Part shown: piece by piece, positions 38,838 through 42,106 of the stretch
Position numbering within the stretch: the stretch's first letter is position 1
Layout of the letters: every line of letters begins with the position of its first letter
Assembly (NCBI RefSeq): GCF_053078305.1
Contig: NZ_CP166879.1
Direction: 5' to 3' (one strand)
Length of the DNA stretch: 64,000 bases
The notes under the pieces: generated by a model
What the model saw: only the letters and a program-made list of their open reading frames with translations
Database searches by the model: none
What the model was told of the DNA's origin: nothing
Program-made: the position numbers and the translations under genes

Positions 38838-39356
38838 ATGTCCATCCGTTTTGCCCGCAAAGCCGACTGTGCTGCCATTGCGGAAATTTATAACCACGCC
38901 GTGTTGTATACGGCGGCTATCTGGAATGACCAAACGGTGGATGCAGATAACCGCATTGCCTGGTTTGAAGCGCGGACCATAGCAGGTTATCCGGTGCTGG
39001 TAAGTGAAGAAGATGGCGTAGTGACGGGATATGCCTCATTTGGCGACTGGCGTAGTTTCGATGGTTTTCGCCATACCGTGGAACATTCGGTTTATGTCCA
39101 TCCCGATCATCAGGGCAAAGGTCTGGGGCGTAAATTGTTAAGCCGATTGATTGATGAAGCGCGGGATTGCGGGAAGCATGTCATGGTCGCCGGGATCGAA
39201 TCGCAAAATCAGGCCTCGCTGCATCTGCACCAGTCGCTGGGATTTGTCGTCACCGCACAAATGCCGCAGGTGGGCACTAAATTTGGGCGCTGGCTGGATC
39301 TGACATTTATGCAGTTGCAACTCGACGAACGCACTGAACCGGACGCGATTGGATGA
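38838..39356 (+). CDS. mnaT: GNAT-family L-amino acid N-acyltransferase MnaT (YncA)
   Basis: Begins MSIRFARKADCAAIAEIYNHAV; 172 aa; GNAT motif QGKGLGRKLL. Confidence 0.88.
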   Translation: MSIRFARKADCAAIAEIYNHAVLYTAAIWNDQTVDADNRIAWFEARTIAGYPVLVSEEDGVVTGYASFGDWRSFDGFRHTVEHSVYVHPDHQGKGLGRKLLSRLIDEARDCGKHVMVAGIESQNQASLHLHQSLGFVVTAQMPQVGTKFGRWLDLTFMQLQLDERTEPDAIG

Positions 39357-39802
39357 ATCAGTCGCTCACCCTTGCCTTTTTGATTGCCGCCGGAATTGGT
39401 CTGGTAGTCCAGAACACGCTGATGGTTCGCATCACCCAGACCTCCTCTACCATTCTCATCGCCATGTTGCTGAACTCACTGGTGGGGATTGTGCTCTTTG
39501 TTTCTATTTTATGGTTTAAACAAGGTATGGCGGGGTTTGGCGAACTGGTGTCCAGCGTGCGCTGGTGGACACTTATACCTGGCTTGCTGGGATCGTTTTT
39601 TGTCTTCGCCAGTATCAGCGGATATCAGAATGTGGGAGCGGCGACAACTATTGCAGTACTGGTCGCCAGCCAGCTGATTGGCGGTCTGGTTCTGGATATC
39701 TTCCGCAGTCATGGCGTACCACTACGGGCGTTGTTCGGCCCAATTTGTGGCGCAATTTTACTTGTGGTTGGCGCCTGGTTGGTAGCCAGACGCTCATTTT
39801 AA
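39353..39802 (+). CDS. ydcZ: DMT-superfamily inner-membrane protein YdcZ
   Basis: 149 aa, 4–5 TM segments; start overlaps the mnaT stop. Confidence 0.85.
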   Translation: MNQSLTLAFLIAAGIGLVVQNTLMVRITQTSSTILIAMLLNSLVGIVLFVSILWFKQGMAGFGELVSSVRWWTLIPGLLGSFFVFASISGYQNVGAATTIAVLVASQLIGGLVLDIFRSHGVPLRALFGPICGAILLVVGAWLVARRSF

Positions 39803-40036
39803 TCACAGGATGGTGCCGCCTTTGGTTAACTGTTCATGGCGCGCTTCCATATCTTCTTTATGCTTGCGACCGTGATGAGCAATAGCGGTGCGCAAACGCT
39901 GCTGCTGGGTGTAGCGATCTTCCCGACTTAACTCCGCGTCATCGCTCAGGGCGATTAATAATTCGTTCATATGGGCAATGACGCTCTCTTCAATCGCGGC
40001 ATCCACACGCGCGATGACTTCATCCAGATGCGACAT
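39803..40036 (-). CDS. ydcY: Small protein YdcY (77 aa)
   Basis: MSHLDEVIARVDAAIEESVIAHMNELLIALSDDAELSREDRYTQQQRLRTAIAHHGRKHKEDMEARHEQLTKGGTIL. Confidence 0.8.
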   Translation of the reverse strand: MSHLDEVIARVDAAIEESVIAHMNELLIALSDDAELSREDRYTQQQRLRTAIAHHGRKHKEDMEARHEQLTKGGTIL

Positions 40037-40121
40037 ACTTTCTCCTTAGCCACTTGTGAAATTTATCGATTCATCCAAATGATATAAGTCTGCGTGGTGC
40101 CGTCAAGCCAGTGAGTAAGAT

Positions 40122-40295
40122 TTAAAACAGTGAAAACAACAGCGCCACCGGGAAACTCATCGGCCATGTTGCCCCCACCAGAAAGGCGCTTAAGAAACGG
40201 ATGCGTTTCTTATCGTGAGAAAGAAACCAAGTGATAAGAAATGCGATTGCTGCCATAACCGCATAAAAAACAAGCATGTGTTGATAGAGAGACAT
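40122..40295 (-). CDS. ortT: Orphan membrane toxin OrtT (YdcX), 57 aa
   Basis: MSLYQHMLVFYAVMAAIAFLITWFLSHDKKRIRFLSAFLVGATWPMSFPVALLFSLF; the ORF track starts upstream at 40343. Confidence 0.8.
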   Translation of the reverse strand: MSLYQHMLVFYAVMAAIAFLITWFLSHDKKRIRFLSAFLVGATWPMSFPVALLFSLF

Positions 40296-40489
40296 GTACG
40301 GGCGTCCAGCCAGATGAATAAAACGCGCGCAAATATGCGTCATTTTTTGACGTACATCAAGTTTTTTAACCGGTTTGAGAAAAAAACATCAAACAGCAAC
40401 TTGCCCTTATCCATCTTCAGAATGAGTATTATTGCGGATTTTCTTAACCCGTACTATACACATAGGGGCAATGATAAAAGGTGGCAAAA

Positions 40490-40585
40490 ATGAATGTTTC
40501 CAGTAGAACTGTAGTACTGATAAATGTCTTTGCTGCTGTTGGTTTGTTTACTCTTATCTCTATGAGATTTGGCTGGTTTATTTGA
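40490..40585 (+). CDS. yncL: Small membrane protein YncL (31 aa)
   Basis: atgaatgtttccagtagaactgtagtactgataaatgtctttgctgctgttggtttgtttactcttatctctatgagatttggctggtttatttga translates to MNVSSRTVVLINVFAAVGLFTLISMRFGWFI; below the ORF-track size cutoff. Confidence 0.7.
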   Translation: MNVSSRTVVLINVFAAVGLFTLISMRFGWFI

Positions 40586-40607
40586 TGTAGTGATTTTGCA
40601 CGCAGCA

Positions 40608-40642
40608 CGTACTGTCAGAGAAATCAGTGCTCTGACAGTACG
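40608..40642. other. Perfect 13-bp inverted repeat (cgtactgtcagag / ctctgacagtacg, 9-nt loop) between yncL and patD
   Basis: Seen in sequence; no flanking U-tract on either strand, so not a canonical intrinsic terminator. Confidence 0.5.
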
Positions 40643-40681
40643 CAAGATCATCTCATACTCTTACGATCTGCAATATTATCC

Positions 40682-42106
40682 TTAATGTTTAACCATGACG
40701 TGGCGGACGACGGTGTAATCCTCCAGCCCATAAAGTGACATATCCTTGCCGTAACCAGAAAGTTTCTGCCCACCGTGCGGCATTTCACTTACCAGCATGA
40801 AATGGGTATTGACCCAGGTACAACCATATTGCAGCCGTGCACTGACGCGATGCGCCCTGCCCACATCTTTCGTCCATACCGAAGATGCAAGTCCGTACTG
40901 GCTGTCATTCGCCCAGTTCACCACCTGTTCTTCGTTGTCGAAGAGCGTAACACTCACTACTGGACCAAATACCTCTTTTTGCACGATGGCATCGTCCTGT
41001 AATGCGCCAGCCAGCAGCGTCGGCGCATAGTAATAGCCATTACCCTTGCGCTTTTCACCGCCAGTGATCACTTTGATGTGCCCTGTCGCTTTCGCCTCTT
41101 CTACTGCCTTGCTGACGCGTTCGAGATGCGCCAGCGAGCTTAAAGGTCCAAGCTCCGTAGACTCGTCATCCGGCGCACCAGATTTTAACGTTGCCACCGC
41201 AGCACCCAGTTTTTCCACCAGCGTATCGTAAATGCCTTTTTGCGCGTAGATCCGACAAGCCGCAGTACAATCCTGTCCAGCATTGTAATAGCCAAATGTA
41301 CGTACACCTTCGACCACTGCTTCAATATCCGCATCATCAAAAACAATCACTGGCGCTTTGCCACCAAGTTCCATATGAGTACGCTTAATGGACGGCGCGG
41401 TATGGCTGATGATGTGCTCGCCGGTGGCGATAGAGCCCGTCAGCGACACCATCCGCACTTTAGGATGTCCGGTCAGCGGATCGCCCACGGTTTTGCCTCT
41501 GCCAAACAGTACGTTAATCACGCCTGCCGGGAAGATATCTTTCGCCAGCTCTGCCAACTTCAACGCGGTCAGCGGGGTAATTTCTGATGGTTTAAGCACT
41601 ACGCAGTTCCCTGCCGCCAGCGCCGGAGCCAGTTTCCACGCTGCCATCATCAGCGGATAATTCCACGGTGCGATAGAAGCCACGACCCCCAACGGATCGC
41701 GACGGATCATCGAAGTATGACCTTCAAGATATTCACCTGCCGCCAGACCATTCAGACAGCGCGCCGCACCCGCGAAAAAGCGAAAAACATCGACAATCGC
41801 CGGGATTTCATCATTGAACGCACTATGCAGCGGTTTGCCACAATTACGGGACTCCAGTTCGGCAAAAACCTGACCATTTTCTTCGATAACATCAGCCAGT
41901 TTCAGCAGACATTCCGCACGCACTTTCGGCGTGGTTTGCCCCCATTCGGCAAATGCTGCATCTGCCGCGCGCACAGCAGCATCGACCTGCTCTGCGGATG
42001 CCTCGGCAATCTCCAGTAAAACGTCCCCCGTTGCCGGATTATAGACAGGCTGTTTTTCCCCTTCGCCGCTAACCAGTTCTCCGTTAATCAGTAACTTATG
42101 TTGCAT
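40682..42106 (-). CDS. patD: Gamma-aminobutyraldehyde dehydrogenase PatD (YdcW/Prr), aldehyde dehydrogenase family
   Basis: 474 aa, begins [30 protein letters not shown]; ALDH catalytic Cys context. Confidence 0.9.

Follow-up and report, generated by a model that had tools for sequence, protein, structure and literature searches.

The divergent small-protein genes ortT and yncL of Escherichia coli and a conserved hairpin at the 3' end of the yncL transcript

OrtT (YdcX) of Escherichia coli K-12 is a small membrane toxin. It acts through membrane damage, and its expression is accompanied by growth arrest (Islam, Benedik and Wood 2015, PMC4344625). The toxicity is neutralised neither by YdcY nor by GhoS nor by flanking RNA, a genomic library screen for an OrtT antitoxin recovered none, and the orphan status of the protein has been published on that occasion (PMC4344625). 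The closest described system is the type V toxin-antitoxin pair GhoT/GhoS, whose toxin is homologous to OrtT.

YncL, the product of the gene on the other side of the ortT promoter region, is a small membrane protein. According to the account of Hemm 2008/2010 given in PMC12542507, it has been detected in tagged form and is induced by heat shock, during stationary phase and on growth in minimal medium. Top-down MS has also shown the native protein (PMC12529367). An excess of YncL depolarises the membrane and condenses the nucleoid (PMC12542507), and the protein is cleaved by RseP in vivo (PMC10470546). The Salmonella ortholog of yncL lies inside a former 'sRNA', STnc1110, and is sigma-S dependent (PMC5437024). 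RIL-seq and TRIC-seq studies list yncL among the targets of RprA and as a partner of KilS, an sRNA derived from kilR.

For the end of the yncL transcript, the closest described class is that of Rho-dependent transcripts which carry a stable stem-loop with no U's after it, show a steady-state 3' end right after the stem and have a rut region just downstream (Dar and Sorek 2018, PMC6061677). Published work and public data tables already cover both genes and what they encode, the stress regulation, and also the FNR site and the RNA 3' end. Everything of substance at the locus is known or belongs to a known class, and the discovery value of the comparison given here is small.

The ortT-yncL locus and its products

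The locus has been analysed in a window of 64,000 nucleotides of contig NZ_CP166879.1, from which all coordinates are counted unless MG1655 is named. Positions 39800-40700 of the window belong to the E. coli core chromosome. With this 901-bp segment as query, matches were obtained in 5415 of 5426 complete E. coli genomes, in nearly every case in a single copy, and at megablast sensitivity there were 5430 placements in 5416 records. The identity is 100% with strain ES5 and 98.3% with DH1Ec104, which we take from its name to be a K-12 derivative; the window strain itself is not K-12. The gene annotation used is that of RefSeq for ES5, where the DNA is identical over the segment.

In this annotation ydcY (39803-40036) and ortT (40122-40295) lie on the minus strand, yncL (40490-40585) lies on the plus strand, and patD (40682-42106) lies again on the minus strand. 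The interval 40122-40585 runs exactly from the stop codon of ortT to the stop codon of yncL. The two genes are divergent, with their start codons 194 bp apart, and the earlier note, which described them as head to head on opposite strands, had placed every feature correctly. The gene order around ortT, yncL and patD is the same in MG1655, whose coordinates are obtained as 1557684 minus the window coordinate. From the yncL stop codon through the downstream hairpin to the patD stop codon the MG1655 sequence is identical to the window, and a few bases differ in the spacer between ortT and yncL.

The identity of OrtT is supported by the Pfam profile PF10753 (Toxin_GhoT_OrtT), which matches with 96.9 bits against a cutoff of 22.1 (E = 8e-28), residues 4-57 covering profile positions 1-55 of 55. 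The protein has the features of the family, with a length of 57 aa, a hydrophobic composition (GRAVY 1.11) and a close relation to GhoT, the MG1655 form of which is 63% identical in an ungapped alignment of equal length. The window ortT is the same gene as that of K-12, without functional difference. The likeness to the GhoT/GhoS system is limited to the toxins: OrtT is not neutralised by GhoS, as mentioned above, and no ghoS-like gene is found beside ortT, where the neighbours are ydcY (DUF2526) and yncL. The locus does not resemble a type I toxin-antitoxin system either. An Rfam scan of 39000-42000 at E up to 1 matched neither STnc1110 nor any other curated RNA family, and flanking RNA does not lower the toxicity (PMC4344625).

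YncL, a single-pass membrane protein of 31 aa, matches the NCBIfam equivalog NF000537 with 72.5 bits against a cutoff of 35, and its residues 1-30 cover the 30-position model. With these matches and the RefSeq annotation, the names ortT and yncL, which had been assigned to the two genes from the letters alone, are both correct, and so is the description of both products as hydrophobic (GRAVY 1.39 for YncL). In the Pfam-A scan YncL was assigned to no family, though precomputed annotations carry PF28073:YncL; this is a difference of library versions. The only residue that differs from K-12 MG1655 is residue 13, which is valine in the window and phenylalanine in MG1655. In gene identity and in position relative to ortT and patD, the window yncL agrees with the YncL of Hemm et al. 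and with the ORF of Salmonella STnc1110 (PMC5437024).

At 31 aa the protein falls, as had been remarked, under the default 60-aa cutoff of the ORF track. The ORF list starts yncL three codons early, as a 34-aa frame, at a GTG. This GTG is part of the Shine-Dalgarno sequence AAGGTGG (40478-40484, plus strand), which ends 5 nt before the ATG and whose GGTGG is invariant or nearly so in 18 aligned loci. The start of yncL is therefore the ATG at 40490. The same argument has been made for the Salmonella ortholog (PMC5437024).

To place the genes in a wider context, ortT loci were collected by a scan with an OrtT alignment, one genome per species, which gave 80 loci. An ATG-initiated ORF of 30-31 codons, homologous to YncL and divergent to ortT, is present in 27 of them; it has 31 codons in 26 and 30 codons in the remaining one (L064). 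Among the 27 distinct coding sequences, the variable sites are distributed over the three codon positions as 9/6/27, and the pairwise dN/dS against the window sequence is 0.06-0.32. The earlier note had let its reading of yncL depend on a translation signal for the 31-aa ORF. Such a signal is available from the published detections of the tagged and the native protein, and the coding signature in the evolution of the sequence agrees with them.

Predicted divergent promoters with different regulators

The ortT side of the spacer reads, on the minus strand, CTTGATGTACGTCAA. It contains a 14-bp palindrome, TTGAC-GTAC-ATCAA (40347-40360), which resembles an FNR box and has 9 of 10 matches to the FNR consensus TTGAT-N4-ATCAA. 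The half-site that faces ortT doubles as the predicted -35 element (TTGATG, minus strand). The predicted -10 hexamer, CATATT (40332-40337, minus strand), lies 17 nt past this half and 36 nt upstream of the ATG. A block at this promoter, GCATATTGCGCGCG, is kept in nearly all of the 80 ortT loci. In about 60 of the 80 a TTGA-N6-TCAA core, mostly in the form CTTGAT-N4-(A/G)TCAA, is found 61-67 nt upstream of the ATG, and it is kept at loci with yncL and at loci without it.

In the 64-kb window, motifs of this kind are not more frequent than expected by chance (6 against 3.9 expected), so the case for the FNR site rests on its conservation and on published ChIP-chip data, in which the FNR target 'ydcX' carries this very sequence as its predicted site (PMC1802558). 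In strain CFT073 ydcX has been found to be up 11.9-fold with NO (PMC5320621). This induction would fit a presumed repression by FNR bound to a box that overlaps the -35 element.

The position of this promoter bears on the start codon of ortT. In the program-made ORF list ortT is contained in a longer frame of 73 aa, which was considered and rejected: the ATG of this frame at 40343 falls inside the promoter, flanked by the conserved -35/FNR box on one side and by the -10 hexamer on the other, and the 57-aa form is consequently the correct one. Public databases contain many over-long ortT calls of 73-97 aa. As their additional N-terminal codons fall into the promoter, these calls are start-codon mis-annotations.

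On the yncL side, a predicted -35 element TTGCGG (40432-40437, plus strand) is followed by a predicted -10 element of the sigma-S-like form C-TATACA (40454-40460, plus strand). The corresponding blocks ATTGCG and ACTATA(C) are invariant in an alignment of 18 ortT-yncL intergenic regions. A SELEX peak of the RpoS holoenzyme has been reported in the yncL/ydcX spacer (PMC5493296). The two predicted promoters stand back to back, about 80 bp apart. As predicted, they would be separate promoters that answer different signals, with FNR acting on ortT and sigma-S on yncL. Given its listing with RprA and KilS, the short yncL mRNA (about 40466-40645) is probably under sRNA control.

A weak RNA 3' end with 848 Term-seq reads is also listed in this region, at window position 40327 on the minus strand (MG1655 1517357, plus strand), 32 nt upstream of the ortT start codon. 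It has an intrinsic-terminator score of 3.18 and a Rho score of 0.5, and it falls nearly on the transcription start predicted from the -10 hexamer. Read-through from patD and a start antisense to yncL are possibilities for its source transcript.

Distribution of yncL and its association with ortT

The YncL family is tiny. An exhaustive search of 1.84 billion cluster representatives returned 9 hits. The two most divergent genuine homologs, which are metagenomic and 63-70% identical, are also divergent to a PF10753 gene, and at all 27 yncL-bearing species-level loci the spacer to ortT measures 183-197 bp. At the other 53 of the 80 ortT loci, none of the frames within about 4 kb holds a YncL-like ORF; loci of Enterobacter, Kosakonia, Lelliottia, Leclercia, Phytobacter and Pantoea are among these 53. 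When all six frames of 81 loci were searched with an HMM, YncL turned up at no locus beyond the 28 known before, L001 included. Nine of the ortT loci without yncL were inspected for a substitute divergent small hydrophobic ORF, and none was found in these nine. As for an adjacent antitoxin gene, no GhoS homolog is present at ortT, and yncL always adjoins ortT where it is present.

That YncL homologs are found only beside ortT is, as far as the sequences searched indicate, a mildly new point. By this distribution ortT is the older and wider gene, and yncL is a lineage-restricted addition upstream of it. A young gene that stayed where it arose would give this picture, and functional coupling does not follow from it.

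The published toxicity tests are of interest here. The ortT-flank construct of Islam et al. began at codon 8 of yncL and held only the first 23 nt of the gene (PMC4344625); the primer UTR-F used by the authors corresponds to about 40484-40512 of the window. The direct test of flanking sequences on OrtT toxicity therefore left full-length YncL outside. Since YncL is found solely beside ortT and the published construct contained only part of yncL, there is a cheap question to be asked, namely whether the 'orphan' toxin has a small-protein partner.

In its general form, the idea is that the two genes work together as one functional module and that YncL, for instance in the role of a small-protein antitoxin or of a membrane partner, modulates OrtT or acts against it. 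The observations that speak for it are the divergent arrangement of every YncL homolog found (27 of 27 species-level loci and the two most divergent metagenomic ones), the small size of the family with its 9 cluster representatives, the shortness of the yncL part in the flank construct, and the fact that either protein depolarises the membrane when overproduced (PMC4344625; PMC12542507). Nevertheless, we regard such a module as very unlikely. The 53 of 80 loci without yncL within 4 kb imply that OrtT does not need YncL, each gene has a predicted promoter of its own under a different regulator (FNR for ortT, sigma-S for yncL), and the genomic-library screen gave no OrtT antitoxin (PMC4344625). 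Moreover, overproduction of YncL is itself harmful (PMC12542507), and the adjacency is also explained by a young gene that arose on site and was not moved.

A more specific form of the idea, to which we likewise give little credence, would be that YncL evolved beside ortT in Escherichia, Salmonella and Citrobacter as a dedicated depolarising partner that tunes or antagonises OrtT, the back-to-back promoters responding to opposite signals. These signals would be sigma-S, heat shock and minimal medium for yncL, and FNR/NO and the stringent response for ortT. If this were true, OrtT would be no true orphan in these three genera. The reading that we prefer remains that of two independently transcribed neighbours.

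Some further observations on the loci compared may be added. One candidate for a divergent YncL homolog, P0126 from Logan assemblies (L089-L091), was rejected: its seven differences from K-12 are all explainable as C-to-T changes. The P0126 contigs contain almost no called genes. They are probably bisulfite-converted E. coli reads that were assembled as if native, and they are a trap for homolog counts. On the other side of ortT, ydcY and ydcZ are confined to Escherichia among the loci compared. In Kosakonia/Phytobacter a second GhoT/OrtT-family paralog lies in tandem directly 3' of ortT (L016, 4224-4436, plus strand; L053, 4175-4447, plus strand), and in Escherichia ydcY occupies the slot of this paralog.

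The hairpin and the 3' end of the yncL transcript

Downstream of yncL, the perfect 13-bp inverted repeat that had been noticed at 40608-40642 is present and lies far beyond chance. Its arms (40608-40620 and 40630-40642) are complementary at 13 of 13 positions and enclose a 9-nt loop. It is the sole perfect inverted repeat of at least 13 bp with a loop of 3-20 nt in the 64-kb window, in which 0.02 such repeats are expected (first-order Markov, dinucleotide-frequency shuffles). As RNA of the plus strand it folds with -21.6 kcal/mol (z = -4.5), and none of 200 shuffles is as stable.

The hairpin is also conserved. Minimum free energy folds show a strong stem-loop 20-35 nt past the yncL stop codon in nearly all yncL-bearing loci, the exception being L009. 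It is kept in Citrobacter genomes whose patD lies at a distance of 0.5-2.9 kb or is missing from the locus, so it belongs to yncL and not to patD. In an alignment of 26 sequences the RNAalifold consensus stem has 10 pairs, 4 of which show double compensatory changes, from G-C to U-A in Escherichia, from A-U to G-C in Salmonella and from U-A to A-U in two Citrobacter. With the stem at its Escherichia length of 15 pairs, double changes are seen in 9. Paired cells amount to 82.7%, a share that falls to 37-51% if the 3' partner is displaced by 1-3 columns, and in 500 column shuffles neither the paired fraction nor the covariation score came up to the observed value. Pairing in the hairpin has thus been maintained through compensatory changes in Escherichia, Citrobacter and Salmonella.

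A perfect 13-bp palindrome whose core, CTGNCAGAGAG, is well conserved across genera could in principle act as DNA, either as the binding site of a dimeric protein or as a dispersed REP-like element. We consider this extremely improbable. The region is single-copy by the counts given above, and no second repeat of this kind exists in the window. The changes in the arms are compensatory and do not preserve the sequence. The loop varies from about 3 to 9 nt among the aligned loci, and this variable spacing of the arms counts against a dimeric protein-binding palindrome. In addition, an abundant RNA 3' end lies at the base of the palindrome, and no Rfam family matches. The conserved element is accordingly read as an RNA stem-loop at the 3' end of the yncL mRNA.

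Term-seq (Adams et al. 2021, PMC7815308) has mapped this RNA 3' end to minus-strand position 1517039 of MG1655, which is position 40645 on the plus strand of the window, 3 nt past the last base of the stem. It was found in all three growth conditions, with 75,265 reads in LB at OD 0.4 and 536,300 reads in LB at OD 2.0 (PMC7815308), so that the signal is about 7-fold higher in stationary phase. In the Term-seq table the site is labelled as antisense to patD, solely because its distance from the stop codon of yncL exceeds 50 nt. The proposal that the inverted repeat marks the end of the yncL transcript is borne out as far as the position is concerned. The simple terminator implied by that proposal is not supported. 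The stem-loop is stable and contains G+C, but no U-tract follows the stem immediately on either strand (the plus tail is CAAGAUCAUC and the minus tail is UGCUGCGUGC), and the site is not picked up by a terminator scan.

If the repeat were a Rho-independent terminator, perhaps a bidirectional one, transcription of yncL and of the convergent patD would both end at the stem. The strong conserved stem between convergent genes and the 3' end 3 nt after it are what such a terminator would leave, and homologous hairpins at the same position are followed by a U-run in Salmonella and form a canonical bidirectional terminator in L064. Still, we hold this explanation to be unlikely for the window. The U-tract is absent on both strands in Escherichia and Citrobacter and the scan misses the site, no patD-strand 3' end is listed by Term-seq at MG1655 15170xx-15172xx, and a Rho-sensitive region lies downstream. 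Furthermore, ExcludonFinder has placed patD-yncL among the convergent pairs with overlapping transcripts (PMC12288877), which implies read-through. The strong 13-bp stem may nonetheless cause some termination that does not depend on U's.

The sequence past the stem is C-rich and G-poor, and 40643-40692 on the plus strand is a possible rut region. By hand count, the first 40 nt from 40643 contain 11 C and 3 G. For the 50 nt past the common 10-bp stem, counted in the window from about 40638 and thus from inside the lower stem, the figures are 12 C and 6 G, and the mean of 26 loci over the same stretch is 14.1 C and 7.5 G. In a bicyclomycin experiment, a Rho termination region has been reported on the yncL strand at MG1655 1516753, with a Rho score of 16.6 and p = 5e-21 (PMC7815308, supplementary file 2). 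The reads upstream and downstream of this point were 220 and 9 in untreated cells and 106 and 72 with bicyclomycin (PMC7815308). The region lies 286 nt downstream of the yncL 3' end, a distance to be read against the 800-nt resolution of the Rho score. The reads induced by bicyclomycin inside patD could also come from cryptic antisense promoters and not from read-through of yncL.

Based on these observations, we propose that yncL and ortT are independently transcribed and that the U-less hairpin is the stable 3' end of a Rho-terminated yncL mRNA which has been trimmed back to the stem; we consider this likely. As no U-tract is present, read-through followed by Rho termination and trimming is the most likely mechanism. 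The yncL mRNA would be monocistronic, about 180 nt long and made from a predicted promoter of the sigma-S type. RNA polymerase would pass through the hairpin, Rho would load on the C-rich, G-poor tail and terminate downstream, antisense to patD, and 3'-5' exonucleases would then trim the transcript to the stem, which would shield the yncL message.

The protective stem-loop of a Rho-terminated transcript fits the hairpin better than a canonical intrinsic terminator does, with Rho and trimming as the presumed steps. As in the class of Dar and Sorek, the stem-loop is stable, no U's follow it and the steady-state 3' end lies immediately downstream; C-rich sequence is found just 3' of the stem, and a bicyclomycin-sensitive region further downstream. 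The hairpin differs from that class in that its orthologs in Salmonella and L064 resemble intrinsic terminators and in that Rho dependence and trimming are, at yncL, what we infer from these features.

The form of the hairpin changes along the species compared. It is U-less in Escherichia and Citrobacter, in Salmonella arizonae and diarizonae (L007, L010) a U-run comes after it, and in Enterobacteriaceae RIT691 (L064), the most distant locus, it is a canonical bidirectional terminator with an A-run, the stem and a T-run. The latter forms suggest that an intrinsic mechanism is ancestral or at least possible. The hairpin orthologs may represent a natural gradation that links intrinsic with Rho-dependent 3' ends. 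The hairpin of yncL is a clean and phylogenetically supported U-less 3' stem-loop and, as such, a potential test case for the interconversion of the two modes.
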